Shown: positions 319-23,145 of the stretch, piece by piece
How positions within the stretch are numbered: position 1 is the stretch's first letter
Layout: every line of letters starts with the position of its first letter
DNA from: Candidatus Bathyarchaeota archaeon
GTDB lineage: Archaea; Thermoproteota; Bathyarchaeia; Bathyarchaeales; Bathyarchaeaceae
Assembly (NCBI GenBank): GCA_029882515.1
Contig: JAOUKN010000003.1
Location: 1 to 46,382 of the forward strand
Direction: 5' to 3'
DNA length: 46,382 bases
Notes under the pieces: generated by a model
The model's database searches: none
What the model was told of the DNA's origin: nothing
What the model saw: the letters and a program-made list of their open reading frames with translations, nothing else
Translations under genes and position numbers: made by a program

Positions 319-504
319 TTAGGGCAGTTCTTGCCCGAAATTTTGGGCTGCGATTAAGATGTCATCGACCCGTACTTTACCATCGCCATTTACGTCACAA
401 TCAGGATCCCAATTCGGATCACCTGGTTCAGACCCGAACGCAAGAGCGACCGCGAGAATGTCATCTATCCGCACCTTACCATCCCCATTCACGTCTCCCA
501 AGAG
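319..504 (-). other. Dockerin module of the PKD giant
   Basis: GDVNGDGKVRIDDILAVALAFG...WDPDCDVNGDGKVRVDDILIAAQNFG: two EF-hand-like loop+helix repeats. Confidence 0.88.
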
Positions 505-3500
505 TTTTTCGCTAACGGCCACAACGTAGGACACAGTATCGGACTGATCTAGTTCATCAGTGACAGTTAATGCCACTATGTAGTTGCCTGGTTGAACATA
601 TGTATGATTTATTGCGAACACAGAGATCGTGGTTATGTTGCCATCGCCGAAATCCCACATGTACGAAACGATTGGTGGATGATCAGTCCCATTCCACCCA
701 GATGTGGATGTTGATGCATCAAACGTGATCGTTCGGTTAGGATAACAGGGATATGGCCACGTGAAGTCAGCCGTTGGACCACTAAGTGGAAGAATAGATA
801 TTATCTTTGATGCGGTGGACCAGAATCCCCGAGTATCTGTTACGTTCAGAGCTACAGTGTAGTTTCCTTCAGATGCATATGCATAATAGACTACTGGATC
901 CACAACAGTTATTGTTTCACCATCGCCAAAATGCCACGTGTAGTTAGCAATCTCTGCTACAGTTCCTATCGAGTTTGACGCGTCGAACAGGACAGTTTCG
1001 TTCACATATGGATCGGAAGGAGTCCACGAAAAGTCCACATAGGGACCGGTCACAATTACAGAAACCAGTTTTTGTCGGATGTTCCAGAGACCTTGATCAT
1101 TGGTAACATTCAATGCGACAGTGTAATTTGCTGGTGCACCATATTGATGCGTTATGATTGACTCAAATACTGTTGTAGAGTTGCCATCGCCAAAATCCCA
1201 AGTATAATTGACGATAGATCCCGTGGGGTCGTAACTTTCGGAGGCATCAAAAGCGATGACTTCATTTATTTCAGGATATTGTGGCTCCCAAGTGAAATCT
1301 ACGTGGGGTCCCGCTATAACCGTTACTATCTTCGATATTGCATCGGTGTTTTCGTCTAGATCTTCCACAGTGAGAGTTACATTGTACTGTCCAAGGGCAG
1401 TATAAACATGTGTTACAATTGAATCCCAGCCAAGATCGGTCTCACCGTCGCCAAATCTCCAATGATAGACCCAAATTTGACCATCCGGATCGTGGCTTTT
1501 AGAGGCGTTGAAAGTGACTATCCCACCTTTCACCGCGGGGTCGGGAGAGTAGACAAATGCTGCCACAGGTGAAGCTTGTTCAACGGTTATTAGCTCAACA
1601 TTCAAATCAGAGAGCCCCTCACTATCCGTGACCGTCAAGACAGCAGTGTAGTTTCCAGCTTTTGCATACACATGAACTACCATTGATGTCGTAGTGGTCG
1701 TGATGTTGCCATCACCAAAGTCCCATGCGTAGTCTGTGATGGACCCGCCTTGGCCTGGTGTGGATGATGATCCGTCGAAGTTGACAGGCAAACCGGCTGT
1801 GGGGGGCGTTGGAGAGTATTGAAAAGTGGCTGTTGGGTAATCTCGAACTGATACAGTTGTGGATGTTGTGTCTGAGAGGTCTTCACTATCTGAGACAGTT
1901 AGAGTCACCACATAGTCTCCAACCGTCGTGTATAGATAGGTAAGTATTGGGTCGGGGGTATCGACAGGGAGCGATCCATCACCAAAGTCCCAATGGTAGT
2001 TATCAATTGACCCACCGTTAGGAGTTGAAGAAGACGCGTCGAAAGTTACGTCTTCTCCAGCAATTGGATAATCGGGAATACACATGAAGGAAGCTGTAGG
2101 GTATTCTCTAATCCTGACGAATTTGGTCTTTTCGTCTGTGAACCCTTCATTGTCGGTTACAGTCAATATCACAACATACGTCTTCGCAGTCGCGTAAGTA
2201 TGAGTTGTGATTGGGCTTGTTGTCGCCGTTATATTCCCGTCACCAAAATCCCACGTGTAGTTCATAATATAGCCGTTCGGATCATAACTCTCCGAAGCAT
2301 CAAACGTGACCACGTCGCCCACGAGGACGAATCCAGGAGAATACGTGAAAGATGCTACAGGAGCACGGAGAACTGTAATCATCGTTGAGTTGGTGGCATT
2401 TATGCCCTCATTATCGGTAACAGTGAGTGCTACTGAGTAGACGCCATCTGAGACATAAACATGAATTGTTATGGGATCAGTTTCGTTCACGGGTAAAGAG
2501 CCGTCACCAAAATCCCACAAATAGCTGATAATAGAGCCGTCAGGATCGTAACTCGCAGAGGCATTGAATGTGGCAGTATCACCTACATATAGAGTTGCAG
2601 GTGAATAGGTAAAGGAAGATACCGGGGATAATCCAACTCTGATAGTTTGCGATAAAGAATCGCTTAATCCTTCACTATCTGTCACATTAAGAACTACAGT
2701 GTAGTTTCCTTCAGATGAGTAGACATGAGTTAATATCGGGCCGCTTACTGCTGTGATGTTTCCATCTCCAAAGTCCCATTGGTAGCTAGTGATAATTCCG
2801 CCATTTGGAACTGAAGAAGATGCATTGAAAATTATAGATTGGTTCTTGGCTGGGGGGTCAGGTGAATACGTAAAAGCGGCAGTTGGATAGTTTCTCACCA
2901 TCACCACGTCTGTACTATTATTGGTTGCTGAATCGTCATCCGTTATGGTTAGCGTCACCGTGTAGTCTCCTTCTATTGCATACGTATGACTCACTATAGG
3001 TGTGGCTACGGTTGTTGTCGTATTATCTCCGAAATTCCATGCATAGTCTACGACATAGCCATCAAGGTCATAGCTAGCAGAAGCATTGAACGCAACAATC
3101 TCACCGACAATTGGATAGCTAGGAGAGTAGATGAAGGAGGCGCTAGGAGACCGGTTCAAGATTGTCTTAGTTGCCACTGCAGCAACTACAGATCCATCAT
3201 CATCTGTAACTGTCAAAGCAACTGTGTAGTTCCCATCATTAACATAGGCGTGCTCAGCCAAAACGCCTGTAGCATTGGTACCGTCGTTAAAATCCCAGAA
3301 GCAACTAACAATTACGCCATCTGGATCATAGCTGCCACTGGCGTTAAACGTAATGGACTCTCCAGTGTAGACCGTCTCTGCAGACTCGGTAAACGAAGCA
3401 ACTGGAAACCTGTTCAAGATTGTCTTAGTCGAAGTCGCAGACGAAGTCTCACCTTCATTGTCTGTAACCGTAAGGATAACAGTGTAGATGCCGTCATCAG

Positions 3501-6500
3501 CATATGAATGATTCACGGTAACGCCAGTTGCATTAGTGCTATCACCAAAATCCCAGAAATAACTAACAATTACGCCGTTAGGGTCATAGCTCGCAGAGGC
3601 GTTAAAGTAAATAACCTCATCAGTATAGACAATCTCTGCTGACTCAGTGAATAACGCAACGGGAGACGTACTCAAAACTATCTTAGTTGCGCTGACAGAT
3701 GTGGTCGCACCATCATTATCAGTAACGGTTAATGTAACAATGTACGTCCCTTCGTCTATAAATGCATGATCCAAAATGACATTAGAAGCGTTAGTGCCAT
3801 CGCCAAAGTCCCAGAAGTACGTAGCTAGATAGCCATCAGGATCATAACTGGCAGAAGCATCAAAGTGGATAACCTCTTCAGTATAAACCGTCTCTGCAGA
3901 CTCCGTGAAAGACGCAACGGGAGACCTATTCAAAACAGTTTTGGTTGAACTTGCCATGCCCGTTGCGCCATCGTCATCAATCAAGGTTAAGGTGACGAAG
4001 TAGTTCCCGTCATCTATATAGGCGTGTTCAACGATGATATCTGTCGCGTTGGTATCGTCACCGAAATCCCAGAAGTAACTTAGAATAACACCGTCAGAAT
4101 CATAGCTGGTGGAGGCGTCGAAGTGAATTACCACACCGGTGTATACTACTGTTGCAGACTCAGAAAATATAGATACAGGAGATCGGTTCAGGATTGTCTT
4201 GATTGAGGTGGCGGTGGCAGTTGCATCAGCATCATCAGTGACGGTTAGAGTTACAGTGTAGTTTCCATCGTCAGCATATGCATGACCCACACTCAGACCT
4301 GCAGCGTTAGTACCATCGCCGAAATCCCAGAAATAATCAACAATCACACCATCTGGATCATAGCTGCTGCTGGCGTCAAATGAGATCACCATGCCAGTAT
4401 AGGCAGCTGCTGCAGACTCAGTGAATATAGCTACAGGAGATGAGTTCCCAACTATCTTAGTAGCGATAGCTGACGCAGTTGCACCATCATCGTCAGTAAC
4501 CGTCAAGGTGACGATGTAGTTTCCCTTTTCAGCATACGAATGCTCCGTCGTCACGCCCATAGCGTTGATTCCATCACCAAAATCCCAGAAATAACTAACG
4601 ACATAACCATCTGGGTCATAACTTCCAGAAGCATTAAAGTAAATGACCTCACCAGTAAGCACATTTTCCGCAGACTCAGTGAATGAGGCAACAGGAGACC
4701 TGTTCGACACAATCTTAGTAGCGGTAGCCGACGCAGTTGCACCATCATCGTCAGTAACCGTCAAGGTTACCGTGTAGACTCCATCATCTACATAAGCATG
4801 ATCCACGATGGCACCAGTAGAGTTAGTGCTGTCTCCAAAGTCCCAGAGATAACTAATGATATAGTCATCTGGATCGTAGCTGGCAGAGGCATTAAACGTG
4901 ATAATCTCATCCGTTAGCACGGTCTCCGCAGTTTCAGTGAACAGTGCAACCGGTGGCCTATTCAGAACCGTCTTAGTTGAGGTAATGATGCCGGTTGCAC
5001 CATCGTCATCAGTCACAGTTAGGGTAACTGAGTACGTTCCGTCATCAACATAAGAATACTCTACAATCATGCCAGTACTGTTTGTTCCATCACCAAAATC
5101 CCAGAAATAACTAACGATTGTACCATCAGAATCATAACTGGCGCTAGCATTGAATGAAATAATCTCGTTGGTATAAACCGTTTCTGCGGACTCCGTGAAA
5201 GACGCAACGGGAGACCTATTCAAAACCGTCTTAGTAGCACTTGTTGAGGTAGTTACACCGTCGTCGTCAGTAACCGTTAGGATTACTGTATAAGTCCCAT
5301 CGTCTACGTATGCATGATCCACGATGACGCCAGTAGCGTTAGTGCCATCGCCAAAATCCCAGAAGTAACTAACAATGATGCCATCAGAATCGTAACTAGC
5401 TGACGCATTAAAGTAAATAACCTCGCCTGTAAACACCGTGGTCACAGACTCAGTGAACAATGCAACAGGAGACCTATTCAAGACTGTTTTAGTGGCCGAC
5501 GCTGAGACTGACGCTCCATCGTCATCTAGTATGGTTAGTGTGACTGTGTAGACTCCGTCGTCAGCGTACGAACGATCCACGACAACACCAGTGGCGTTAG
5601 TGCCATCGCCAAAATCCCAGAAGTAACTAACTATTGTGCCGTCTAAATCATAGCTATTTGACGCGTTTAATGTGATAACATCGCTTGTGTAGACGGTTTC
5701 CGCAGACTCAGTGAATGAGGCAACAGGAGACCTGTTCAAAACAGTTTTGGTTGAAGTATCCGTGGCAGTTGCATTATCGTCATCAGCAACGGTTAGGGTC
5801 GCCGTATAAATGCCATCGTCGGCAAATGCATGATCCACGATGACGCCAGTAGCGTTAGTGCCATCGCCAAAATCCCAGAAGTAACTAACTATTGCGCCGT
5901 CTGGATCATAACTGGCAGAAGCATCAAAGGAGATGATCTCATTTGTATAGACGGTTTCTGCAGATTCAGCAAATGATGCCACAGGAGACCTGTTTAGGAC
6001 CATCTTGGTCGCACTGGTCGATGCAGTTGCACCGTCGTCGTCTGTCACAGTTAGAGTTGCCGTGTAGACGCCATCACTCACATAAGCATGACCCACAATA
6101 ACACCCGTAGCGTTGGAACCATCGCCAAAATCCCAGAAGTAACTAACAATGGTGCCATCAGAATCGTAACTGGCAGAAGCATCAAAGGAGATAACCTCAT
6201 CAGTAGACAGAGTTGTTGCAGACTCGGTGAACGATGGTACTGGTGACCTGTTTAACACCGTTTTAGTGGATACTGCCGAGGCTGTGGCTCCATCATCATC
6301 CGTAACCGTCAGCGTCACGTTATATACACCGTCATCCACATACGAGTGAACAACAATCACACTGGTCGCGTTGGTACCGTCACCAAAGTCCCAGAAGTAA
6401 CTAACTATAACACCGTCGAAGTCGTAACTTGCAGATGCATTGAACATGATAGTCTCGCCGGTAAGCACGGTTTCTGCAGATTCAGTAAATGTGGCTACTG

Positions 6501-9500
6501 GGGGTGTGATTCCGACCGTCTTGGTGGCGCTGGTCGATGCAGTTGCACCGTCGTCGTCTGTCACAGTTAGAGTTGCCGTGTAGACGCCATCGTCGGCATA
6601 TCCGTGTTCAGTCGTCATCCCTGTGGCGTTGGTGCCGTCACCAAAGTCCCAGAAATAACTAACTACGACACCGTCGGGGTCGTAGCTTTCGGATGCATTA
6701 AAATAGATAACCTCACCGACAAGCATAGTTTCGGTCGACTCTGTGAACGACGCTATTGGAGACCTATTCAAGACAGTCTTAATGACTGACGTTGAGGATG
6801 ATGCACCGTCATCATCGGTCACGGTTAAAGTCACCGTGTAGTCGCCATCATCAGCATACGCATGATCCACAATGACCCCAGTAGTGTTAATGCCATCACC
6901 AAAATCCCAGAAATAACTAACAACTGTACCATCTGGATCGTAACTCGCAGAGGCATTGAAAGCGATAATCTCGGCAGAGTAAACTGTCTCTGCAGTCTCT
7001 GTAAATGATGCAACTGGAGAATTGTTCAAAACTGTCTTAGTTGCGATCGAAGAAGAAGATGCTCCATCATCGTCTGTGACAGTGAGTGTGACTGTGTAAT
7101 TTCCATCTTCAGAATATGTGTGATCTACAATTGTTCCTGTAGCGTTAGTGTTATCACCAAAATCCCAGAATCGACTAGTAATAATGCCGTCAGGATCATA
7201 ACTCGCCGAGGCGTTGAATGAAATAACCTCACCAGTAAACACCGTTTCGGTAGATTCGGTAAACGATGCGACTGGAGGCCTATTCAAAACTGTCTTGGTT
7301 GCTGTGGCGACGCCAGTTGCGCCGTCATCATCTGTCACCGTTAGAGTGATTGTGCAGTTGCCGTTGTTGGCAAAAGAGTGATTCGTAACAATGCCTGTTG
7401 TGTTGGTACCATCGCCGAAATCCCAGAAATAGGTGGCGATCGAACCATCGGGATCATAGCTGGCAGAGGCATTAAACGTGATAACCTCATCCGTGTATAC
7501 GGTTTCCGCGGATTCGGAGAAGGAAGCACTAGGAGCACGATTCAGAACTGTTTTCGTTGTGGTGGCACTGTTAGTTACCCCGTCGTCGTCAGTGACAGTT
7601 AGTATCACCGTATAGTTTCCGTTATCGGTATATGCGTATTCAGCTGTAACGCCAGTAGCGTTAGTGCCATCTCCAAAGTCCCAAAAATAACTAACGAGCA
7701 CACCATCTGAATCATAACTGGCGGAGGCATTGAAGTAGATAAATTCACCCGTATACACTGTCACAGCAGATTCAGTGAATATGGCTACAGGAGGTGTTAC
7801 CTCCACGTTCTTTGTAGCGGTTGCTGAAGTGGTTGCCCCGTCATTGTCGGTAATGGTTAACGTGACCGTGTAAACGCCATTGTCTGCATAGGCGTGCTCA
7901 GTCGTGACATCTGTGGCGTTGGTACCATCACCAAAATCCCAGAAATAACTGACAATAGAGCCATCAGGATCATGACTGACGGAAGCATTGAAGTAGATAA
8001 CTTCATCGACAAGTACTGTTTCGGCAGACTCAGTGAATATAGCTACTGGAGGTCTATTCAAAACTGTCTTAGTTGCGCCAGCTGAGGCAGTTGCGTCATC
8101 ATCATCAGTAACCGTTAGGGTGACAGTATAGGTTCCATCTTCTGAATAAGCGTGATTCACAATTATTCCTGTGGCGTTAGTACTATCCCCAAAATCCCAG
8201 AAATAACTCACAATAGCACCGTCAGGGTCATAGCCGTCCGAAGCGTTGAATGTGATAGTCACACTGGTATAGACGGTTTCTGCAGACTCGGTAAAGAATG
8301 CGACTGGAGGTCTGTTCAATACTTTCTTGGTTGATGTAGCCGTGCCAGCTGCTCCGTCGTCGTCAGTTACCGTCAGTGTGACGACGTAATTTCCGTCGTC
8401 GGTGTATGCGTGTTCCACAGTTACGCCCGTAGCATTAGTTCCATCACCAAAATCCCAGAAATAACCGACAATAACACCGTCTGGATCATGACTCTGCAAT
8501 GCGTCGAAGTAAATAACCTCCCCAGTATACACCACTGATGCAGACTCGGTAAATATGGCTACAGGAGAACGGTTTAAGATCGTCTTTATCGCCGTGGCGG
8601 TATCAATTGCACCATCATTATCGGTTACTGTAAGGGTGACCATGTAGTTTCCGTCATCTGCGTAGGAATGACCTACAGTGATCCCTGTAGCATTTGTGCC
8701 ATCACCAAAATCCCAGAAATAACTAACAACGGTGCCATCTGGATCGTAGCTGGTGCTAGCATCAAATGTGATGGTCACACTTGTATAGACGGTTTCTGCG
8801 GACTCGGTAAAGAATGCGAGAGGTGGTCTGTTTAGGATGGTTTTGATTGAAGATGTTGATGCTAATGCACCATCGTTGTCAGTTATAATTAGTGTCACTG
8901 TGTAATTCCCATCGTCAGCATATGCGTGATCTGTGACTATACTTGTATTGTTAGTGCCATCACCGAAATCCCAGAAATAACTGATGATGATACCATCCAG
9001 ATCGTAGCTCTCGCTAGCGTTGAAGGAAATTGTGTCACCAGTATACACTGTTTCTGCAGACTCAGTGAAGACAGCAATGGGAGGTCTGTTTAGAACCGTC
9101 TTATTGGCGCTAGTCGAATTAGTTGCCCCGTCATCATCAGTAACTGTCAGTATTACTGTGTAATTTCCCTCCTGGGAATATGAATGCTCGGTTGTCACGC
9201 CAGTGGCATTGGTACCATCACCAAAGTCCCACCAATAACTGACAATCGTACCATCGAGATCGTAGCTATCTGAAGCATTGAGATAGATAGTTTCATTGAT
9301 GTAGACAACCTCCGCTGATTCCGTGAACGTAGCGAGAGGTGGCCGATTTAAGACGGTTTTTATTGCGGTGTCACTATTGGTTGCGCCATCGTCATCCGTC
9401 ACTGTCAGCGTTACCGTGTAAATACCATCATCTACGTAGGCATGATCAACAGTGACTTCAGTAGCGTTGGTGCCGTCACCAAAATCCCAGAAATAACTCA

Positions 9501-12500
9501 CAACAGAGCCGTCAAGATCCAAGCTACTGGAAGCATCAAAATGAATTGTCTCACCCGTATATACGGTTTCTGCGGATTCAGTAAACGAAGCTACTGGCGG
9601 TCTGTTTAGCACCGTTTTGGTTGAAGTTGTAGTATCTGTGGTGCCGTCATCATCCGTCACTGTTAAGGTTACGGTATAGTTTCCATCATCGGCATAAGCA
9701 AGATCAACCACGATGCCAGTAGCGTTAGAGCCATCTCCAAAATTCCAGAAGTAGCTGACAATCATACCATCAGGATCATAACTTTGAGAGGCATTGAAGT
9801 GAACAGTTTCTCCAGTGTTTATGGTTTCAGCGGACTCGGTGAAGGATGCCAATGGCGACCGATTCAGAACAAATTTAGTAGCGGATGCGGTATCCGTGGC
9901 GCCATCGTTATCTGTGATAGTTAGGGTCACAGAATAATCACCATCATCCACGTATGAGTATTCGACAATGGCTCCAGTAGCATTGGCGCCATCACCAAAA
10001 TCCCAGAAATAACTCACAATCAAGCCATCTGGATCATAGCTTGAAGAGGCATTGAATGTGATTATCTCTTGCGTAAGCACAGTTTCCGCAGATTCAGTGA
10101 ACAATGCTACTGGATGTCTGTTCAAGATCATCTTAGTCGCCGACACCAAGGCTGTGGCTCCATCGTCATCAGTAACGGTTAGGGTCACTGTGTAGTTTCC
10201 GTCGTCTGCATACGCATGGTTAACGGTAACGTCCGTGGCATTAGCTCCATCTCCCAAATCCCAGAAATAACTAAGAATCATGCCGTCGGGGTCATAGCTA
10301 TCGCTTGCGTTGAACGTAATAGCCTCACTGGTGTAGACGGTTTCAGCTGACTCGGTGAAGGACGCGACAGGAGGTCTGTTTAGAACCGTTTTGGTTGAGG
10401 TTGCAGCATCTGTAGCTCCATCATCATCAGTGACAGTTAGAGTCACTGCATAGATTCCATCATCAGCATACGCATGATCCACAATGATCCCAGTAGCATT
10501 GGCACCATCACCAAAATCCCAGAAATAACTGACTATCGAGCCATCTGAGTCGTAGGAGGCACTAGCGTTGAAGGTGACAGCCTCATTGGTGTAGATGGTC
10601 TCAGCCGACTCGGTAAACGACGCAACAGGAGATCTGTTCAGAACCGTTTTGGCTGCTGTAGCAGTGTCTGTGGCGCCGTCATCATCTGTAACGGTTAGGG
10701 TGACTGTGTAGTATCCATTATCGGCATAAGCATGATTTACAGTAACGCCAGTAGCGTTAGTTTCATCATCGAAGTTCCAGAAGTAACTAACAATAGTACC
10801 ATCTAGGTCATAACTAGCACTAGCGTTAAAGGATACTACCTCATCGGTGTAGACGGTTTCAGCCGACTCCGTGAAGGAAGCAACGGGAGATCTGTTTAGA
10901 ACTGTCTTGACTGAAGTAGCAGTATCAGTTGCGGCTTTGTCATCTGTAACCGTTAGAGTTATGGTATAAATGCCATCATCCACATACGTGCGTTCCACAA
11001 CAATACCAGTTGCGTTGGTGCCGTCGCCAAAATCCCACTCGTAGCTGACGATTATACCATCTGGGTCATAACTGCTACTGGCGTTAAACGTGATAGGCTC
11101 ATTCGTATAGACGGTTTCCACAGACTCAGTAAACGACGCAACAGGAGATTCATTCATGAGAATTGTCTTGGTCGACGATGCCGAATCTGTTGCTCCATCG
11201 TCATCTGTTATGGTTAGGGTCACGGTGAAAGTTCCGTTAGTAGCAAATGCGTGATTTACAGTGATCCCAGTGGCGTTCGCACCATCGCCAAAATCCCAGA
11301 AGTAACTGACAATCATGCCATCTGGGTCATAGCTGTTGGTAGCGTTAAAGGTGATAGGCTCGCCAACATACACGGTTTCCGCAGATTCTGTGAATATGGC
11401 TACTGGAGGTTTGTTTAAGACTGTCTTAGTTGCAGTAGCGAGGCCAGTTGCGCCGTCATTATCGGTAATTGTTAGAGTTACGATGTGAATGCCATCATCC
11501 AGATAAGTGTGATTTACGATAATGCCAGTAGCGTTGGTGCCGTCACCGAAATCCCAGAAATAACCAGCAATCGAACCGTCTAAGTCATAACTAACACTAG
11601 CGTTAAAGGATATCACCTCATCAACGTAGATCGTTTCAGCTGACTCGGTAAACGAAGCAACAGGAGGTCTGTTTAGAACCGTTTTGGTTGAGGTTGCAGC
11701 ATCTGTAGCTCCATCATCATCAGTGACAACTAGTGTCACCGTGTAGTTTCCGTCCTCAGGATAAGAGTGCTCCACAATGATCCCAGTAGCATTGGCACCA
11801 TCACCAAAATCCCAGAAATAACTGACTATCGAGCCATCTGAGTCGTAGGAGGCACTAGCGTTGAAGGTAATAGTCTCACTGGTGTAGATGGTCTCAGCCG
11901 ACTCGGTAAACGACGCAACAGGAGATCTGTTCAGAACCGTTTTGGTTGCTGTGGCGGTTTCTGTGGCGCCGTCATCATCGGTTATAGTAAGAGTTACTGT
12001 ATAATTGCCGTCGTCAACATAAGCATGATCAACCACAACGCCAATAGCGTTGGTGCTGTCACCAAAATCCCAGAAATAACTAACTATTGAACCGTCTGGA
12101 TCCGAGCTACCAGAAGCATCAAAATAAATGGTTTCACCCGTATACACGGTTTCAGCAGACTCGGTAAACGAAGCAACAGGAGGTCTGTTCAGAACCGTTT
12201 TGGTTGAAAATACGATGTTGGTTGCCCCATCATCATCAGTAACAGTCAAGGCAACCGTGTAATTACCATCATCAGCAAATGAGTGATCAGTCGTGACCCC
12301 AGTGGCGTTGGTACCATCACCAAAATCCCAGAAATAACCAACAATCGAACCATCAGGGTCATGACTATTAGTAGCGTTAAAGGTGATGGTTTCATTGGTG
12401 TAAACAGTCTGAGTCGATTCGGTAAAAGCAGCTATAGGTGGACGGTTTAACACGGTCTTGAACGCTATCGTGCTATCAGTAGCGCCGTCATCATCTGTCA

Positions 12501-14989: not shown

Positions 14990-15751
14990 TTAGTGAAGTG
15001 TTCTTTCAAATAATCTGCGTCTGTACAAGCCTATAGCAACTGTAAGCATGGTAAATAAAAGAAGCATTGATATCCATGTGGAAAATTCTGGAACCCAGCT
15101 ATATCCATTAGAAGACATATCTCCCCACACTGCTGGTTCTGAAATACCGGCCGTGGAAGGCCATGCATACCATCCCATATCAACATCCATATCAACGATT
15201 AGAAACATAACTCCAAGCGTCTTATTTCCGCCAGCAGTCACATCCAACTTTGCATAGGTAATATTGTATTCACACTGCCACGCAGTCGATGTTGAATTAG
15301 CTTTCGCTGTCCAACCACAGACTGTGGTTGGAAACCAACCGCCTGCAGTTACATTGTATTCTTGTGTGGCACCGATACGAGAAATACGAAACCACACGTC
15401 GTCTGTCTGCAATGAGGTGTTCCTATCGTGATCAACATCGAAGATAAGAATACAACAGTCACTATTGTTGAACGTAGAGTCTGGTATGTCAAATCCGGCA
15501 TAGAGGTTAGTACCATCTTGCTTGGCATAGACTGTGCAACTGGCCCCGTCGGTAATTGAAACCGTAATATTACTGGCATCATTCCATTCGCCACTTTCAA
15601 AGGCCCCGTTTAAAGTTGGAGTCAAACCATGCACAGCAACTATGATGTTCTCAGAAGATGCTTCGGTCATAGGAGCGTTAAATGCAATAGCTAACGCAGC
15701 AGCCAAAAGCAGGGCTAACATTTTTTTGGCTATCTTTTTCTTATCATACAA
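14990..15751 (-). CDS. Secreted DOMON/CBM9-like sugar-binding domain protein with PEF-CTERM sorting signal
   Basis: Signal peptide; PTLNG..E.GEW.DA, YAKQDGTNLY.GF, IFDVDHD and WQCEY motifs typical of DOMON-like/CBM9-like domains. The C-terminus is VPEF followed by a TM helix and RRR. Confidence 0.7.
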   Translation of the reverse strand: MYDKKKIAKKMLALLLAAALAIAFNAPMTEASSENIIVAVHGLTPTLNGAFESGEWNDASNITVSITDGASCTVYAKQDGTNLYAGFDIPDSTFNNSDCCILIFDVDHDRNTSLQTDDVWFRISRIGATQEYNVTAGGWFPTTVCGWTAKANSTSTAWQCEYNITYAKLDVTAGGNKTLGVMFLIVDMDVDMGWYAWPSTAGISEPAVWGDMSSNGYSWVPEFSTWISMLLLFTMLTVAIGLYRRRLFERTLH

Positions 15752-15837: not shown

Positions 15838-16824
15838 CTAGCCGCTATAATTGCCAAAGGCTTGCGCCACAATCAGAACATCATCTACGCGGACTTTGCC
15901 GTCACCATTTATGTCAACACTAGGATCCCAGCCTTCGTCACCCTCGTTCATGCCGAAAGCCAAAGCCACAGCCAACACGTCATCTACCCGCACCTTACCG
16001 TCATCGTTCACATCACCGATTAGAATGACTTCAAACGTTGTGCTATTGGTTATGAACAGCATTTGATATTGTGAAACTGCTGAGATGCTGTAGTTGCCCG
16101 TGATCCCTCCTTCAGGGTTCGTACGAAATGTCAGATTGAATTCTCCTGGTGTACTTGTGCCGAAAGATTCTTCGGAGGTATAGGTTTCTCCTCCCCCTCC
16201 ACCAACAATGTTAAATCCAACTGACGCTTCAGGGCAGTAGGCGAATCCGTTTTCGTTCGGCCATCCATACAACGCACTGGTGTATATAAACGCGGGGCCG
16301 AGAGATATGTATTCAGAGATTGGTATAGGCCAGATGAAACGACGTTCCTCTTGTTCTGGTCCTAGCTCTGTTTGGAATAGTTTCTGCGCTATGAAGGGTA
16401 AACCGGTTGAGTCATAAAGATTCAACGTGACCGTCACATTCTCTGAGGTGAGCCCGTTGTTTTTCACGGTTATGTTTATTCCTAGACCTTCGCCTAGTGT
16501 GAAGCTCGATTTGGCGTTTCCAAATCGGTCACATGTGACCAATTCTGGGATCTCAACAACCCATGGACCCACAGGATTGTCCCCTGTCGGCAGGGTCCTT
16601 AATACGAACAGGTTCTCATTTGGATCGTCTATTTGGATTGCTACAAAGCCATCAGTTACAGGTGAACCATCCAGCATTAGGCTTCCATGGACCGAAACGC
16701 TTTCTCCAAGACCGTTTTCCTGGTCAACACTCAAAATGAGTTTCAAGCTCACGGCTTGTACAACTTGGACTGTTACGAGGATGACGAGGATAGTAAGGAA
16801 GGTGAACCACTGTTTCCGAGACAT
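15838..16824 (-). CDS. Secreted Ig-like domain protein with C-terminal dockerin
   Basis: Signal peptide, beta-rich body, and the C-terminal GDVNDDGKVRVDDVLAVALAFG...DINGDGKVRVDDVL. Confidence 0.85.
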   Translation of the reverse strand: MSRKQWFTFLTILVILVTVQVVQAVSLKLILSVDQENGLGESVSVHGSLMLDGSPVTDGFVAIQIDDPNENLFVLRTLPTGDNPVGPWVVEIPELVTCDRFGNAKSSFTLGEGLGINITVKNNGLTSENVTVTLNLYDSTGLPFIAQKLFQTELGPEQEERRFIWPIPISEYISLGPAFIYTSALYGWPNENGFAYCPEASVGFNIVGGGGGETYTSEESFGTSTPGEFNLTFRTNPEGGITGNYSISAVSQYQMLFITNSTTFEVILIGDVNDDGKVRVDDVLAVALAFGMNEGDEGWDPSVDINGDGKVRVDDVLIVAQAFGNYSG

Positions 16825-16921
16825 TTTGTTCTATCCCGTTTTTATCTATAAAGAAAACTTAAAGATACAAGTATAAACCTTGTGCAGCTGTCTTGTTGCC
16901 ACTTGTCTGAGAAACGGATGG

Positions 16922-17956
16922 TTACGGTGCCCATTCTTTTCCAAACTCCTTAGCGACAGCCAAAACATCGTTTACGCGCACCTTGCCATCCTTGTCTAGG
17001 TCTGTATATGGGTTCCAGTCCGGGTCACCTTCATTGGAGCCGAAGGCTAAGGCCACAACTAGAACATCATCTACGCGGACTTTTCGGTCACCATTTATGT
17101 CTCCGATGATCGTGGCGAAGATTTTGATGTTTCTTGTTGAGTGTTGATAGGTGAACTGTATGAAATCGTGTGTTGCATTCTTAGAGAGGCTATAGGGAGT
17201 CGGAGTGGTGTCTACGAGAACCATTATTGTACTGACGTTTCCGTTGAGGAACGATGTTGGTGTTGCCACAGTTGTCGACCCAACAGTTCCTGTGGTTCCT
17301 GTTGCGTCAAACATAATTTTTTTCGATCCTTGGTCGTAGTTGAACGTTGTGATCGTTGAGTTGCTGAAGATTAGAACATGATAGGTTTCTTGGTTGATTA
17401 TCACCGTAAACAAGTTTTCTTCAAAGCCTTGGTCTGTGACGATTACAATGCCATCCATTCCTTCGAATGGAATGAATTCATAATCTGGCTCCTGAAGATA
17501 GGTGTCGCAGAGTTCGCTGGGACATTCGGGTTCTACTATTTCTAAGCTGCTGATGCCTGGGTCTATGCTGTTGAATTCTACTTGAACTAAATTGCCTGAG
17601 CCATTTACGCCATAGGTTCCATCTAATACACAGAAAACCAGCACGTATCCTTCTGCATTGTCAATTTCAGGTGGAAATAGAATGAAGTAGCTTCCGAAGA
17701 TATTTTCGTCAGGAACTGTAATGTCAGTACAGTTGATTATTGAGGGGTTGAAACCAAGTCGAAGTTGCCATGTATTGAGGTTGGTCACATTGGATACGGT
17801 AACGTTGATTGTGACTGTTTGCCCTATCTGGACATAGCTCTTGTTAGGATTCACGATGATTGCCGTTCCTGCGAGCGGAGAAGCAAAGCGGAAGCTGAGA
17901 AATATTATCGTGGAAGTGACAAGTAATCCTAATAAGATTGTTGCTTTGCGATTCAT
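16922..17956 (-). CDS. Cohesin + linker domain + dockerin protein (adaptor-scaffoldin-like)
   Basis: Signal peptide. Cohesin pattern GQTVTINVTVSNVTNLNTWQLRLGFNPSII...GSGNLVQVEF..G.SSLEI; C-terminal GDINGDRKVRVDD...DLDKDGKVRVND. Confidence 0.85.
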   Translation of the reverse strand: MNRKATILLGLLVTSTIIFLSFRFASPLAGTAIIVNPNKSYVQIGQTVTINVTVSNVTNLNTWQLRLGFNPSIINCTDITVPDENIFGSYFILFPPEIDNAEGYVLVFCVLDGTYGVNGSGNLVQVEFNSIDPGISSLEIVEPECPSELCDTYLQEPDYEFIPFEGMDGIVIVTDQGFEENLFTVIINQETYHVLIFSNSTITTFNYDQGSKKIMFDATGTTGTVGSTTVATPTSFLNGNVSTIMVLVDTTPTPYSLSKNATHDFIQFTYQHSTRNIKIFATIIGDINGDRKVRVDDVLVVALAFGSNEGDPDWNPYTDLDKDGKVRVNDVLAVAKEFGKEWAP

Positions 17957-18063
17957 GTAAATCCTCTTCTCAAGCTCATTTAGATCTCCGAGACAGTAAA
18001 GGGTTTTGGTTAAGTTACTTTTACCTTCATATTCTTACATGATTCTCTGTATAGAAATTTTCA

Positions 18064-18100
18064 CAAAAAAGGAGAGGATGAGATGTGTGCACGTGCACAC
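18064..18100 (-). terminator. Putative terminator: 16-bp perfect palindrome followed by pyrimidine/T tract
   Basis: GTGTGCACGTGCACAC (18085-18100) is self-complementary. On the minus strand it lies 20 nt after the scaffoldin stop and is followed by ATCTCATCCTCTCCTTTTTTG. Confidence 0.55.
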
Positions 18101-18120
18101 GCTTAGTTTACGGTTTTACC

Positions 18121-20436
18121 CTAGTATGGCAGTACGTAGATTGTGGTTGTGTCTTCCGGTCCTGCAGCAGTCCATCCGTCCACATACCAGAAGAGTGGAA
18201 CTGCATGGATTGTTGCTGTGCCAACGAAGACAAACTTGTCAATGTGTAGACTTAGTTCCACCAGGTACTCTTCCGCCGTGCAGAATTCTGCTCCGGTGAC
18301 ATTGAGCATTACTACTCCAAATGCAACTGGCACGTTGAGTTCGTCATGGATGGTTACGCGCATTGCGACGAGATATTGTTGTTGTGCATGGCTGGTGAAG
18401 GTAATACTGATGTCTACCCATTCACAGTGTTCGTAGTAGTACTTGTCAGTTGTAACTTCGACGATGTTTACTAGCCAGTCGTAGTGGAATTCAAGCTCAT
18501 CGTAGATTGATTCGCAGGCGACGTCGACTTCTGCTACAACTCTCCATACTCCGAGTAGGCTTTCAGGATCATCGCAGGGCCACGGTAGTCTGAATGAGAC
18601 GCATGCCACGCCGTCTTCGTCTGTGACGGCTTGCAGCGTTGTCCACATGTTGTCTTGATTATCCCAGACTGTGAAGGTTACTAGTTTTTGCTGTACTGGC
18701 CAGCAGTTGAAGGTTACGTTTGCGCAGAGGATGACCTCTTTTTGTGGCCAGAACATGTCGCTGGGCTGCATTAATCCTTGGCCTCCGTATGGAGCTGGAT
18801 ATTGGGTGTATACGTCGATGATTCGACCCACTTCAAATGAGCCTAGTATTGTATAGGTACCGTCTACGGGGTCTCGATAGCCTATGGGTTCACTCTTCTT
18901 GTCAATCATTAGTATGTCGTACAGGATGAAGTCGCATTCGAAGTCTTCTGGATCGCAACTGACGTCTTGCGCTGTCACTTCAAAGGTGATGATGGCGATT
19001 GTTCCATTTTCTACCGGATCTCCGCCAGCCACAGGATCTGGATAGTATCCTGTTCCGTTTGGCAGGATCAAGTCCATGAGCACGATGTAGTCGCCTTCGT
19101 CAAACGCCTGGAAGATTGTAGGTTGCGGTGCACCGGTTTGCTCGAATTGGGGTAGGTAGTCTCCTTCTTCGATGCTTACTACTTGCATCAAATCGGGACA
19201 ATAGGTTAACCTGAATTCAACTCCTACGAGGTACCAGTTCCAGTGTAGCTCCTTGATGTTCACAGCGATTGTAAATTCTTCGCCGACTGCAGGTGCAGGT
19301 CCCAATGTGGTATCGTTGGGCACCACTTCTAAGTATGGTGGTACGATTGATAGGTACGCAACTACCTGAACCATACCGTCTACAGGTTCACTGTCTATTG
19401 TATATTCATGGTCCCAGACTTCGGTTTCGTCGCAGAATGCTAGTGCAGTTTCGTTGTAGGCTCCTTGTGCCTCTGGTGGGGCGTTTCCTTGTACTAGTAT
19501 TTCGAAGGTGATGGTGGCAACGAGTACAGAGGCTCCTCCGTCTTGTGAGCCAGAGAAGCCGCGAACGGTGGCGTTAACCCAGTCTAAGGTATCATGGCTC
19601 ATGGTGATGCTGTTCGTGCCAGTCCAATCCGCCGTGTTAAGGACTGCTGCTGTAGCGTTGATGAGGGTTGAGTCATAGCTTAGGCAGAAAGTGGCGTTGG
19701 TCATGCCCCAACCGGCGTAGTAGTTGGCAATAACAACGTCAACATCGAAGGTTGTACCAACCCAGTGAGTCCATTGGTCGAAAATGTTTTCGTCGTCGTC
19801 GGTGGTGAACCAACAGGGTGCTGGTGCCGACCACGTGAAATTGTAGTTCGCGTTAATTCCTATCCATCGGTAGTAGACCTGTGCATCGTCTTGGATGTAG
19901 TTATCCTCGCTAGTCGTGATGTCAAGGAGACTGTTAAATTCTTCACCTTTTGTCGGAACCGATACCACTTCGAATTCAAGGTAGGCCACGCTGGATGGGC
20001 AATGGCTTGGACCTGGATACGGACCACTGAAGTACGACTCAGCGAATAGTACGTAGTCGCGAGTGCTATCATATGAGCCGTATGACGGGGATGTAGCGAT
20101 GTGTGTGGTTCCAGCTTTTATGAAGAGTTCGCTTGCGTCGGTGCCTTCATCAATTCCGGAGTACCAGGCGCCATTACATTGTAGGTGGTTCTTGTTGTAT
20201 AACATGTAGAACTGCCATGAAGCAACGCTTACGTTTGAGTTTACGAATACGGTGACATTGAATTTGTAGCCGATGGATGTCGTAGACGTATCGAAGCTGA
20301 TGTTGGCGGGTTCAATCCACAGGGCATTGGCCGGGTGAGTTGTGCTGGGAACATCATATGCAAGGACTGGTAGTACAGAAAGTAGAAGCATTAGAACTGC
20401 CATTGACACTATAATCTTCTTTAGGTTTCTTTTCAA
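18121..20436 (-). CDS. Scaffoldin-like surface protein: three cohesin-like domains plus two C-terminal Ig-like domains
   Basis: Signal peptide; TTG start at 20436 preferred because it follows GGGAG (ATG at 20460 is the alternative). Three cohesin-like patterns: GYKFNVTVFV..WQFYMLYN, GTTFDVDVVI..FCLSYDSTLI..VATITFEI, and GEEFTIAVNI..VEFRLTYCPDLM..GTIAIITFEV. No dockerin and no C-terminal TM helix. Confidence 0.75.
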   Translation of the reverse strand: MKRNLKKIIVSMAVLMLLLSVLPVLAYDVPSTTHPANALWIEPANISFDTSTTSIGYKFNVTVFVNSNVSVASWQFYMLYNKNHLQCNGAWYSGIDEGTDASELFIKAGTTHIATSPSYGSYDSTRDYVLFAESYFSGPYPGPSHCPSSVAYLEFEVVSVPTKGEEFNSLLDITTSEDNYIQDDAQVYYRWIGINANYNFTWSAPAPCWFTTDDDENIFDQWTHWVGTTFDVDVVIANYYAGWGMTNATFCLSYDSTLINATAAVLNTADWTGTNSITMSHDTLDWVNATVRGFSGSQDGGASVLVATITFEILVQGNAPPEAQGAYNETALAFCDETEVWDHEYTIDSEPVDGMVQVVAYLSIVPPYLEVVPNDTTLGPAPAVGEEFTIAVNIKELHWNWYLVGVEFRLTYCPDLMQVVSIEEGDYLPQFEQTGAPQPTIFQAFDEGDYIVLMDLILPNGTGYYPDPVAGGDPVENGTIAIITFEVTAQDVSCDPEDFECDFILYDILMIDKKSEPIGYRDPVDGTYTILGSFEVGRIIDVYTQYPAPYGGQGLMQPSDMFWPQKEVILCANVTFNCWPVQQKLVTFTVWDNQDNMWTTLQAVTDEDGVACVSFRLPWPCDDPESLLGVWRVVAEVDVACESIYDELEFHYDWLVNIVEVTTDKYYYEHCEWVDISITFTSHAQQQYLVAMRVTIHDELNVPVAFGVVMLNVTGAEFCTAEEYLVELSLHIDKFVFVGTATIHAVPLFWYVDGWTAAGPEDTTTIYVLPY

Positions 20437-20610
20437 TATTCTCCCTTCTCTTTTCAACATGTATCTGATGAACTCTGCGGATTTAAGTATTACGGAAGTA
20501 TCTTCTATCTCCTAGACGTGTACATCAGCACTCCTTGTTCGATCTGGCTTCACACATTCTCTCAAAATTATCAAAATGAAAAGTAGACAATATTTCGTAA
20601 GGAGAGAATA

Positions 20611-20629
20611 TAAAAAGGGGGGGAAGGGG
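20611..20629 (-). terminator. Putative archaeal pyrimidine/oligo-T terminator after the SBP gene
   Basis: Minus-strand CCCCTTCCCCCCCTTTTTA about 20 nt after the stop codon. Confidence 0.45.
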
Positions 20630-20646
20630 TTGTTTCAGTTTTTCGT

Positions 20647-23145
20647 TTATGGCCAGCCGAAGTTGAGGGCGACAGCCAGAATGTCGTCGACTCGGATTTT
20701 GAAGTCGCCGTTGACGTCGCATCGTGGATCCCATCGCAAGAAGGCGACAAGGGGATCGGAACCGAAGGCGAGGGCAGCGGCTAAGACGTCGTCCACACGA
20801 ACTTTGTCGTCGATGTTGATGTCTTCGGGGATGGTGGCGTGGATGGTGTGCGTATACGTGTCCACGAGCAGCGTACCTTGCCAAACTTCCACGGTGATCT
20901 CTACGGTTCCTGCGCAGAGGGGATAGATGGTGTAGGGGCCGAGTTTCGCCCAGTCAAACACGTTGACTTGGGTGTCGTTTTCGACATGCTTTACTACGCC
21001 GTCTTCTTTGATCACTACGTCCACAGTCTTGTTGGCGAGTTCGCCGTCGACTTTGTAGCCATAGTTCGTAACCAAGACGTTGTATTCCACGGGATCTTCA
21101 ACGCAATCTGTCTCGTTCACGAAAGCAATGTAGGGTGCATCAACAACCGCCTTGATGGGGCCGTCCACCCAGTAAACGTCGCTTGAGTGGACTTCGCCGA
21201 TTCGGGTGGCGTCATCGTAGTAGTCGTAGACGAAGGCGCCAGCACCGACGTTGGCGGTTTGTGGGGCGTTGCTGTCACGTGGCGGCAGACCGGCATCCGG
21301 CCAAGCAGCGTAGTAGTCGAGGTACTGTGGGCGCACGGATGTGTACCAGAGTTCTTTGGCTTTGGCGGTCCAGTCTTGGTAATCCCACGCATCGGGGACC
21401 ATGGCGTCAAACGCGATTTTCTGTTCGTCGGGATTAACTGAGGATTGTTCAGCCATTTCGTCGAGGATGTAGTAGATGTGCTTCGGGAAGTAGGACGCGA
21501 TTTGTGGATAGTCTTCGTACCAGAGGCTGGTCGCATTGAAGTAGGTGATGAACTCGTAGGGACCTTTGGCTTCCGTGTAAACGACAGTTTTCCACGTGCT
21601 CTCGTATCTGCCAACCTCCCATTTCTTGAGCATGTTGAAGGCGAATTGGCAGTCGTCGGCCGTGAACTGGAAGGTTTTGCCGCCTGCACCGGTGTCCTGC
21701 CAGTAGACATCGTTTCGGAGGTAGTAGGTGACTTTCATGCCGTCCGGTATGTTCAACGCTGCCGATACGTCAGCGTTAACCGTGCTGTTGACGGCTTCAA
21801 TTTTGGATTTGTATGCTATCCAAGGTAAGTCGGTGCTGGGAACTGGTGGCGAAAACATCATTAATGGTTCGTGGAGTCCGTCTAAGAGCAACCATCCATA
21901 TAAGGTATTGTCGGTCCATGGGCTCAGTGTGTCAGGTTCGTCTCCCATGGCGCGTCGTATTAAGCCTTCGTAGGGCGGATTGTTATATACAGTGCCTGGA
22001 CCCCAGTGGACGCTTCGCCAGTTCAGGTAGCATTGGTCCGCGCCTGGACCCGGTGAGCCGATGAAGTTATCGAGGTCGGGATCCCACGTAGTAATACCTT
22101 GACCCGTGGTGACGGGGAAGAGGGGCATCCAGTCACTGACGAAGAGGCGTTGCATCTCCCAAACGGCGTCCAGCACAGTAGCTTCATCCAGATTGTACAT
22201 CATCGTCTCCAAGAGGTCATCCATTGTATCGTTGACGAAGCCACCAAAGTTCCATTGCCATGGACCGATGGTGCTTGAATGGTAATTGTCAAAACACCAG
22301 TCCGGAGTTAGTCCCAAACCAGTCAATCCGATGCCAATAAAGTCGAAGTCATGGAAATCCATTAGCTCGTAGACTAAGGTCATGAACTCTCGATCGGTCA
22401 AGATGAAGTTAGGACCGTTCGTGGCGCCTTTACTGTCAAAGAAGGCGTTCACTTGGCCAACGAATTGTTGGAGGATGTATTCCCATGAGAGGGTGCCCGT
22501 GCTGTACACGACTTCGAGGTCTCGTACGCGGCTGCCGTCAGGGTTAAGCAGATAACCCGCATCGTCGCCAGCCCCTAAGGTGTAATCGGCATCCATCAGA
22601 ATCTGCCAGGCGGTATCGTTGTCAGTGTCCGGCATGACGTCCACATTGTTGCACCAGCCGCCTTGAGCGGGCATTATCGCGGATCCTAGGGCGACGGTGA
22701 GGGAGTTCTGGTAGTACTCGTAGATGGCGTCAGCTTTGTCATCCATACCCCACACGTAGGATAGCGCCACTCTAAAGCGGCTATCGTTGAGGGGCTTACA
22801 CGTTTCTCCCGGCGTCCTTCCGGCAGGTCCACCGACCACGTGTGCACAGTATTCATCTCGGTTTTGTACTGCCATAAATCCAAAGGCAGATATAGGATCA
22901 AACGTCATGTTGTATCCCGCCGCGACACAAGCATCGATGAGTTCAGTGGTTCCCGGACCAGGCCTCATGTCAATTTCGTGGTCAACCAACAAGGCAGCGT
23001 TCATCTGTGCGGTGTCATCGTACACCTTGTACTGGATCTTTTGAATGTGCGGAAACGGATCGTTAATGTTGGTTGTCGCAGATACGCTTAAGAGCAATAT
23101 AAGAGCAAACAGCGTAGCAATTACAATAGGTTTTTTCGAAAGCAA
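20647..23145 (-). CDS. ABC transporter family-5 (peptide/nickel-type) substrate-binding protein with Ig-like domain and C-terminal dockerin
   Basis: TTG start at 23145 after AGGAG, then a signal peptide. SBP5 motifs PLNDSRFRVAL, EPDTLSP, YLRNDVYWQD, FTADDCQFAF and GAGAF. C-terminal EDINIDDKVRVDD...CDVNGDFKIRVDD. Confidence 0.85.
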   Translation of the reverse strand: MLSKKPIVIATLFALILLLSVSATTNINDPFPHIQKIQYKVYDDTAQMNAALLVDHEIDMRPGPGTTELIDACVAAGYNMTFDPISAFGFMAVQNRDEYCAHVVGGPAGRTPGETCKPLNDSRFRVALSYVWGMDDKADAIYEYYQNSLTVALGSAIMPAQGGWCNNVDVMPDTDNDTAWQILMDADYTLGAGDDAGYLLNPDGSRVRDLEVVYSTGTLSWEYILQQFVGQVNAFFDSKGATNGPNFILTDREFMTLVYELMDFHDFDFIGIGLTGLGLTPDWCFDNYHSSTIGPWQWNFGGFVNDTMDDLLETMMYNLDEATVLDAVWEMQRLFVSDWMPLFPVTTGQGITTWDPDLDNFIGSPGPGADQCYLNWRSVHWGPGTVYNNPPYEGLIRRAMGDEPDTLSPWTDNTLYGWLLLDGLHEPLMMFSPPVPSTDLPWIAYKSKIEAVNSTVNADVSAALNIPDGMKVTYYLRNDVYWQDTGAGGKTFQFTADDCQFAFNMLKKWEVGRYESTWKTVVYTEAKGPYEFITYFNATSLWYEDYPQIASYFPKHIYYILDEMAEQSSVNPDEQKIAFDAMVPDAWDYQDWTAKAKELWYTSVRPQYLDYYAAWPDAGLPPRDSNAPQTANVGAGAFVYDYYDDATRIGEVHSSDVYWVDGPIKAVVDAPYIAFVNETDCVEDPVEYNVLVTNYGYKVDGELANKTVDVVIKEDGVVKHVENDTQVNVFDWAKLGPYTIYPLCAGTVEITVEVWQGTLLVDTYTHTIHATIPEDINIDDKVRVDDVLAAALAFGSDPLVAFLRWDPRCDVNGDFKIRVDDILAVALNFGWP

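Follow-up and report, generated by a model that had tools for sequence, protein, structure and literature searches.

The window analysed here, a stretch of 46,382 nucleotides from a Candidatus Bathyarchaeota archaeon, represents contig C95 of a metagenome-assembled genome (MAG; 2.23 Mb in 230 contigs, 88% complete). In the open reading frame (ORF) listing of the window, six consecutive ORFs were found on the minus strand at 319-23178, and cohesins and dockerins are prominent among their products. All six translations open with a basic-then-hydrophobic, signal-like stretch (judged by eye), in agreement with the six co-oriented, secreted-type proteins of the original prediction, which had been made from the letters of the DNA. 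The locus is probably (about 65%) one of the clusters of a non-cellulolytic cohesin-dockerin system that extends over the genome of this Bathyarchaeia archaeon and serves surface retention.

The central gene (18121-20460; this and the following coordinates are on the minus strand) encodes a 779-amino-acid (aa) multi-cohesin protein, further called the scaffold. Following a signal-like N-terminus, it consists of cohesins D1 (residues 44-211, 19828-20331), D2 (residues 212-371, 19348-19827) and D3 (residues 372-541, 18838-19347) and of a CT module (residues 542-779, 18124-18837), which comprises two beta-sandwiches and is the best-conserved part of the scaffold family. A 344-aa adaptor (16922-17956) carries one D1-type cohesin (approximately 17573-17842) and a C-terminal dockerin (16934-17122). 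Dockerins also end a 328-aa beta-sandwich protein (15838-16824; dockerin 15850-16032), the body of which resembles weakly the second half of the CT module (CT profile, 14.6 bits), and an 843-aa Opp-type solute-binding protein (SBP; 20647-23178; dockerin 20653-20844) with an SBP_bac_5 match of 56.3 bits and without a C-terminal membrane helix. The last gene (319-14772) encodes a giant secreted protein of 4817 aa, composed of an N-terminal region of approximately 345 aa, 51 PKD domains and a C-terminal dockerin (328-513), as judged by PKD_4 and Dockerin_1 matches. Its core tandem PKD array (3380-12354) has a period of 258 nt and 34.8 copies with 67% DNA matches, and could be assembled because it has diverged at the DNA level.

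Divergently from the SBP gene, four genes of an importer were found on the plus strand: an OppB-type permease (23314-24318; BPD_transp_1, 128 bits), a 506-aa OppC-type permease (24334-25854) and the OppD-type (25855-26817) and OppF-type (26823-27815) ATPases, both with ABC_tran and oligo_HPY. Together with the SBP_bac_5 receptor, the two BPD_transp_1 permeases and two oligo_HPY ATPases form a full Opp/Dpp-type importer set by Pfam. In the OppC-type permease, OppC_N and the permease core are set apart by an insert of approximately 250 aa, in which no Pfam family was found. OppC length ranges from 316 to 855 aa across related loci and is ordinary in many scaffold loci. The insert was considered as a special docking domain, a reading that is not favoured; the same insert is present in an ESM Atlas cluster of archaeal OppC permeases of approximately 510 aa (template modelling (TM) score 0.77).

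Cohesins and dockerins of the cluster

The three tandem domains of the scaffold are genuine cohesins, as had been proposed. Scanned with Pfam Cohesin (PF00963, cut-off 24.1 bits), the whole protein scored 45.2 bits and D3 alone 26.3 bits; D1 and D2, each scanned alone, gave no Pfam match. The three domains are mutually homologous (hhalign 96%, 98.6% and 99.7%) and the CT module is unrelated to them. When the profile of the 779-aa family was compared with the PDB, 18 sequences were obtained at E ≤ 0.01, every one a cellulosomal cohesin module. Separate profile matches were obtained per domain: D3 with 3l8q (3.7e-12), D1 with 1tyj (7.8e-6) and 2y3n_A (8.3e-6), and D2 with 4ums (5.4e-3). The AlphaFold model of the whole protein, from which the limits of D1, D2, D3 and CT were taken, was based on an alignment of 55 sequences (predicted local distance difference test (pLDDT) 90.8) and consists of an N-terminal helix and five beta-sandwich units. 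Since the sequence evidence was weakest for D2, this domain was modelled by itself (19 sequences, pLDDT 87, predicted TM score 0.83). Following a Foldseek search of this model against the PDB, all 41 matches listed were cohesin modules (TM score 0.49-0.69 by query), the best being 1g1k (E 2.7e-8, TM score 0.67) and the fifth the Archaeoglobus fulgidus cohesin 2xdh (E 6.7e-8, TM score 0.68), so that the predicted cohesin fold was recovered for D2. A Foldseek search with the whole model returned generic multi-immunoglobulin (Ig) matches only (S-layer protein 7ptp, alpha-2-macroglobulins, complement) and was uninformative on domain identity. In the 344-aa adaptor, Pfam Cohesin scored 21.2 bits, below the cut-off, and the cohesin was identified with the D1 profile (E 5.8e-11); with the dockerin found by the genome profile described below, the protein has both modules, as claimed.

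For the dockerins, the Pfam model Dockerin_1 (PF00404, cut-off 22.9 bits) gave 25.6 bits for the giant, 22.2 bits for the 328-aa protein, 22.1 bits for the 344-aa adaptor and no match for the SBP. With a profile built from the dockerins of this genome, the SBP scored 82.4 bits and the other three 95-102 bits, confirming that these four proteins end in dockerins; the dockerin of the giant reached 102.5 bits, and 116 bits with profile A2. The latter was made from 24 dockerins of the genome and matched the solved dockerins 2y3n_B (1.8e-14) and 4u3s_B (1.6e-12) in the PDB. Both chains of the same solved complexes were therefore matched, the cohesin profile retrieving chain A and the dockerin profile chain B of 2y3n and of 4u3s. 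Each dockerin consists of two repeated, near-symmetric segments in which a D-x-N/D-x-D calcium loop is followed by a helix. In the A2 alignment D13, D17, D24, D46, D57, G33 and G66 are invariant, and the dockerin of the giant holds DVNGDGKVR(I/V)DDIL twice.

The other three dockerins of the locus are 57-65% identical to that of the giant and belong with it to one class; the earlier description of the four as near-identical was too strong. A second, more canonical class, DVNGDG-x-V-[ND]-I-x-D, was found on contigs C194, C107 and C158 and is 39-47% identical to the main class. It may represent a second specificity. One member of this second class belongs to a cohesin protein that ends in a transmembrane tail.

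Several parts of the cluster gave no usable Pfam family, namely the tail of the SBP and its residues 560-778, the N-terminal 320 aa of the giant (no family in residues 26-345) and the bodies of the 328-aa and 344-aa proteins. NCBIfam scans of five locus proteins, including a 253-aa protein described below, gave nothing above the cut-offs, and a phmmer search of the SBP against the PDB gave no matches.

Modules and receptors across the genome

Using the genome dockerin profile, 38 domains were detected in 37 frames, 28 of which hold a full dockerin (at least 55 bits by this profile). Own cohesin profiles, applied to the whole genome, yielded approximately 19 cohesin domains in 15 frames on many contigs. 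Several proteins bear cohesin and dockerin together, and multi-cohesin proteins with a dockerin are encoded on C216 and C191. Five cohesin proteins have C-terminal hydrophobic transmembrane tails, all on contigs other than that of the locus; one example, a 242-aa single-cohesin protein on C216, ends in IIPEF, a helix and basic residues. The earlier view of the locus as a modular plug-and-socket envelope is retained for the modules, which are real. The locus is not self-contained, as the genome has 28 full dockerins and approximately 19 cohesins on many contigs, with the anchored cohesins on contigs other than that of the locus.

Some module-bearing frames deviate from the common arrangement. 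In a 465-aa protein on C21 (16856-18250) the dockerin is internal (residues 101-160) and no other Pfam family was found. On C67 (2372-2551), a dockerin match at the end of a beta-helix and Amidase_6 protein contains one in-frame TGA, which could represent a broken gene or a sequencing error. On the minus strand of C216 (L036), at approximately 5465-6140, fragments of a CT-module gene are spread over three frames, one of them interrupted by an in-frame TAG; they may be the remains of a decayed paralogue beside the second cohesin cluster of the genome.

PEF-CTERM/archaeosortase sorting is recognized by a C-terminal PEF motif, a hydrophobic helix, a basic tail and an archaeosortase gene. Tails of this type, (I/V)PEF followed by a hydrophobic helix and a basic tail, were found in eight frames, on C4, C52, C86, C89, C95, C135, C182 and C216, and several of the proteins share the stretch NHSTQEVII ahead of the tail. 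The genome has one exosortase/archaeosortase-family gene (PF09721, 49.6 bits; C106:12354-13163). It lies approximately 800 bp from the gene of a 601-aa protein (C106:9768-11570) with a dockerin near the N-terminus (residues 38-93) and no other Pfam family. PEF-CTERM sorting corresponds to InterPro IPR017474, an entry named in a table of PMC5244752. Within the cluster, a PEF-CTERM-like tail (VPEF, hydrophobic stretch and RRR) ends a 253-aa surface protein (14990-15751, minus strand) with a signal-like N-terminus and a weakly CBM9-like beta-sandwich (CBM9_1 marginal, 23.7 bits against a cut-off of 23.4). Neither cohesin nor dockerin was detected in it by Pfam or by the profiles, and a hidden cohesin was ruled out by hhalign to D1, D2, D3 and CT (0.1-0.3%).

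Pfam scans took in 33 of the 37 dockerin(-like) frames, the four left out being short (72-134 aa). NosD/Beta_helix repeats were found in 11 frames, CARDB in seven, PQQ-type propellers in two, Peripla_BP_6 in two and cohesins in several; Flg_new_2/PPC, CBM96, phage tail collar, Kelch and Amidase_6 were found in single cases. None of the 33 frames has a glycoside hydrolase, lyase or esterase family above the cut-off. On the six locus proteins no catalytic Pfam family was detected, in line with the predicted lack of hydrolases, and the scaffold has no CBM family.

These passengers bear on a degradative, cellulosome-like complex, in which beta-helix-dockerin proteins would act as lyases or hydrolases and the scaffold would couple polymer breakdown to Opp uptake. 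The Opp-type transporter family carries oligosaccharides in some archaea and thermophiles. Two beta-helix frames have weak Pectinesterase N-terminal matches (26.2 and 26.3 bits, cut-off 27), one dockerin frame has Amidase_6 (30.9 bits) and one CBM96; beta-helix tailspikes are described as usually being lyases or hydrolases in a passage of PMC13452462. Such a complex is nevertheless considered improbable, given the enzyme families missing from the 33 frames and from the six window proteins and the scaffold without CBM; moreover, beta-helix repeats, present in 11 of these frames, are also common among non-catalytic surface proteins.

Six SBP_bac_5 matches were found in the genome. The four canonical SBP_bac_5 proteins (569-640 aa) all have a C-terminal hydrophobic helix and a basic tail and no dockerin; the three dockerin-bearing SBPs, that is, the SBP of the window and Peripla_BP_6 proteins on C228 and C36, all have the dockerin as their C-terminal end and no transmembrane helix there. 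The sixth SBP_bac_5 match, encoded beside a two-cohesin protein on C191 and paralogous to the window SBP, is truncated where the contig stops. Because the two endings exclude each other in this way, the dockerin on these SBPs most likely takes the place of the membrane anchor. Of the arguments brought together here, this exclusivity points most strongly to surface retention as the job of the dockerin. As a simple rule (four endings against three), it can be checked in other archaea.

Related loci and interpretation

The 779-aa family has 128 database matches at E ≤ 0.001. Many of these cover the full length, with 30-75% identity, and the labels of the few that bear a name read Bathyarchaeia/Bathyarchaeota, Nitrososphaerota or Thermoprotei. 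A motif of the family was found at 38 loci of GTDB representative genomes, 35 of which are labelled Bathyarchaeia/ota. The sole scaffold locus with a non-Bathyarchaeia class label is L049, on a 3.3-kb contig labelled Thermoplasmata; this short contig may be mis-binned. The same cluster was found in genome G011, from another genus of the same family and with its contig among the 38 loci, and in genome G031, from another family; the kinship with G011 puts the window within Bathyarchaeia. The conserved order is OppBCDF, SBP_bac_5-dockerin, scaffold with two to three cohesins and CT, and 328-aa homologue with dockerin, continued by PKD-dockerin, multi-cohesin adaptor with dockerin, short anchored single cohesin, two-cohesin protein and PKD giant.

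Proteins with cohesin and CT were found at 33 loci. Of these loci, 23 have at least 5 kb upstream, and at 19 of the 23 at least two Opp components are present; the survey of synteny across Bathyarchaeia MAGs, suggested with the original prediction, thus shows that the cluster recurs. Opp-like permeases lie on only six contigs of the present genome, and by a rough reckoning, not a computed test, the adjacency of Opp and scaffold genes is far above chance placement. An SBP_bac_5-type protein is present at 17 loci (13 by an own profile, four by Pfam), in 14 cases with a dockerin. The gene right after the scaffold encodes a homologue of the 328-aa protein at 20 of 28 loci. Downstream, a cohesin-dockerin adaptor was found at 16 of 21 loci, the multi-cohesin form measuring approximately 620-780 aa, and a short single cohesin at 8 of 21. 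Among the short single-cohesin proteins of the loci, 13 of 15 have a C-terminal hydrophobic tail and nine a P[EQD]F motif. One scaffold homologue of unusual length (L054:528-3701, 1058 aa) has extra sequence inside D3 and inside CT.

Dockerins of different carriers at the same locus share a mean identity of 56% (82 pairs), compared with 39-47% for dockerins of the same carrier type at different loci and 39.5% for unrelated pairs. Such likeness within a locus is expected if the partner is shared per genome. The cohesin/CT profile matched in 15 of 41 related genomes. Each of the 15 also encodes dockerins, from 2 to 36 per genome, and among them are all 12 genomes in which at least nine dockerins were counted. 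Of the 26 genomes without such a match, 12 have one to seven dockerins. In addition, four RNA libraries, each from a different study, hold contigs that lie on the scaffold, SBP and Opp genes with 90-99% similarity. This support is weak because the runs were chosen using part of the window and DNA may have been carried over; depth cannot rank the genes, and uncovered stretches are uninformative.

In the preferred reading, secreted proteins without a membrane anchor of their own would end in a calcium-type dockerin, and cohesin proteins would keep these clients at the cell surface. At the locus, these clients would be the 51-PKD giant, the small Ig-like protein and the Opp-type SBP that serves the neighbouring OppBCDF importer; in the rest of the genome, they would comprise beta-helix and propeller proteins along with other binding proteins. 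The cohesin proteins would form a hierarchy of membrane-anchored single cohesins with PEF-type or transmembrane tails on other contigs, cohesin-dockerin adaptors such as the 344-aa protein, and the free three-cohesin protein with its conserved CT module. On the SBP, the dockerin would stand in for the membrane helix of ordinary archaeal SBPs and would keep the receptor near its transporter. A docking role of the SBP and of the PKD and Ig proteins fits the conserved OppBCDF cluster, the replacement of the helix, the likeness of dockerins within loci and the co-occurrence of the modules. The proposed docking of an adhesin-like filament and a receptor on the scaffold is therefore kept as far as the docking role is concerned; the scaffold is a candidate for the socket of the SBP. 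Likewise, surface display and nutrient capture rather than cellulolysis agree with the lack of hydrolases and the Opp-linked cluster, an interpretation supported in part only.

The module identities, the cohesin fold, the gene order, the exclusivity of anchor and dockerin and the co-occurrence were observed, and from these we infer dockerin-cohesin binding, the choice of partners and the resulting surface retention. A complex prediction with scaffold residues 44-541 (A1), two calcium ions and dockerin alignment A2, in a run without controls, gave scores of 0.11 and 0.15, where the mark is 0.32; it speaks neither for nor against binding, and the task may have been made harder by the three simultaneous cohesins and by the calcium. 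Several points weigh against this reading. For three of the four locus dockerins, the Pfam dockerin model stays at or below its own cut-off. At 4 of the 23 loci with enough flank no Opp genes are present, and the scaffold-adjacent SBPs of L065, L076 and L077 showed no dockerin, so that scaffold and tagged SBP need not go together. The dockerins of a locus could also have been homogenized by gene conversion, with no partner in common, and the co-occurrence counts overstate the support because related genomes are not independent. Finally, neither a dockerin nor a C-terminal anchor was found on the 779-aa protein or on any of its 32 homologues examined, which leaves the place of the scaffold on the cell unexplained; it may be released from the cell. 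If its N-terminal signal-like helix is cleaved, the protein would need another hold.

The CT module also forms the ectodomain of single-pass membrane proteins, encoded on C129 in this genome and at L041, L067, L074 and L076 elsewhere. The latter four are free of cohesins (L041:4185-6179; L067:7172-8551, minus strand; L074:14666-16708; L076:3172-4605, minus strand), and three of them share the cytoplasmic end motif Y-x-[IV]-I-[IV]-x-x-H-I. Structural leads for CT in the ESM Atlas, all below 0.9, were MG2, Big_1 and MG4-like. Conceivably, a contact between two CT modules could hold the scaffold. A more specific arrangement would join OppBCDF, the SBP-dockerin and the multi-cohesin-CT protein in a non-covalent receptor rack, in which up to three tagged receptors would serve one importer and CT would pair with a CT ectodomain or with the transporter. 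This arrangement is put forward tentatively, and the odds are against it.

The PKD giant raises the question of a system serving mainly adhesion or an extracellular matrix, in which the giant, the CARDB and Ig proteins and the adaptors would polymerize into a mesh or filaments and the SBP would be one passenger of many. A dockerin-bearing 51-PKD giant lies in the cluster, PKD giants end it at many loci, the several cohesin-dockerin proteins could chain head to tail, and adhesion was proposed for anaerobic methanotrophic archaea (ANME) in section 3.5 of PMC5244752. The tightest conserved neighbours of the scaffold gene, however, are the SBP-dockerin gene and OppBCDF, which argues for a transport-linked role of at least that part, and no adhesion target is known; we regard an adhesion system as unlikely. 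That the modules do not pair at all, the dockerins being calcium-binding stabilizing or S-layer-binding tags and the cohesins generic beta-sandwich spacers, would accommodate the marginal Pfam dockerin scores and the fact that pairing is here something we infer, but is very improbable, since both module types match solved interacting pairs, co-occur across genomes, cluster together and have dockerins homogenized within loci, and since archaeal cohesin-dockerin pairs of A. fulgidus bind, as cited in section 32 of PMC9012536.

The remainder of the window holds three short ORFs without a Pfam family, at 28-357 (plus strand, 109 aa), 27877-28335 (minus strand, 152 aa) and 28377-28865 (minus strand, 162 aa). 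Further along lie ordinary genes, among them a DNA ligase (29338-31098) and an amino-acid permease (31564-33039).

Comparison with known systems

Bathyarchaeia are very abundant in anoxic sediments, and to our knowledge their cell envelope has not been described. A conserved cluster of an importer of the oligopeptide/oligosaccharide type, a cohesin scaffold and a dockerin-tagged receptor offers a testable model of how receptors and long surface proteins may be attached. The long-open role of non-cellulosomal archaeal cohesins and dockerins can now be approached with approximately ten defined modules, which can be expressed and tested pairwise.

The closest systems in print are those of ANME. 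ANME proteins that combine a dockerin with as many as five cohesins are described in section 32 of Chadwick et al. (2022, PLoS Biol, PMC9012536), as are NikA/OppA and TroA binding proteins that carry dockerins. In the part of Timmers et al. (2017, PMC5244752) concerned with these domains, ANME cohesins and dockerins were counted and adhesion was proposed. A 2026 paper (PMC13452462) repeats the suggestion that transporters may be held on the outside of ANME cells by dockerins, and mentions NosD-like proteins beside dockerins. Since the principle, including dockerin-tagged OppA-type SBPs, can be read in these sections, the locus is not an undescribed kind of system, for which it had been named the best candidate. 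The ANME systems and the present one are both archaeal, are not cellulolytic, and comprise numerous dockerins and cohesins in each genome as well as multi-cohesin, scaffoldin-like proteins. Shared as well are a dockerin on an Opp/Nik-type binding protein (here SBP_bac_5 at 56.3 bits with a dockerin at 82 bits and OppBCDF adjacent), proteins with several cohesins and a dockerin (here in this genome, on C216 and C191, and at the 16 of 21 related loci with adaptors) and, from the passages of PMC13452462, NosD-like beta-helix proteins next to dockerins. The two differ in lineage, Halobacterota for ANME and Bathyarchaeia (Thermoproteota) here. They also differ in that a syntenic, conserved cluster is tied to OppBCDF here, whereas the sections of the ANME reports cited above are domain inventories, and in the dockerin-free scaffold with a family-specific CT module and the anchoring cohesins with PEF-type tails.

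In the literature search, no published report was found of a Bathyarchaeia cohesin-dockerin system or of its Opp-linked cluster, although the supplementary tables on ANME (S4 Data of PMC9012536) may hold similar architectures. Nor were the cohesin-CT scaffold family, the PEF-tailed anchoring cohesins or the exclusivity of dockerin and transmembrane helix on SBPs found in the literature searched; in PMC7038595 and PMC13452462, the two search words stand in passages that have nothing to do with each other.

Compared with the bacterial cellulosomes of Acetivibrio/Clostridium thermocellum, A. cellulolyticus and Pseudobacteroides cellulosolvens, the present system likewise has multi-cohesin, adaptor and anchoring scaffoldins and duplicated calcium-loop dockerins, and the solved structures that match it best are ScaA/ScaB cohesins with their dockerins. 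In contrast, 0 of the 33 dockerin frames carries a glycoside hydrolase, the passengers being binding, PKD/Ig and beta-helix proteins, and anchoring is by a transmembrane or PEF-type tail instead of SLH domains or sortase. As both the enzyme passengers and the CBM of a scaffoldin are missing, the locus is not to be filed as a cellulosome. With A. fulgidus (PDB 2xdh) an archaeal cohesin fold is shared; that organism has few modules and no multi-cohesin scaffoldin, according to a review cited in the section of PMC9012536 mentioned above, whereas a full hierarchy and a conserved cluster are present here.

With regard to transport, the nearest counterparts would be importers that hold their own receptors. 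In some ABC importers, for example GlnPQ and OpuA, the substrate-binding domains are covalently fused or anchored in the membrane. By analogy, both arrangements would hold the receptor at its transporter in a cell that lacks a periplasm, and one transporter might be served by several receptors. If the receptor rack exists, it would correspond to ABC importers in which several binding domains are fused, but in modular and exchangeable form, and would be a new principle of solute capture in periplasm-free cells, widespread in Bathyarchaeia. The difference from GlnPQ and OpuA would lie in the tether, which would here be non-covalent, a joint between dockerin and cohesin with the scaffold as a separate protein.

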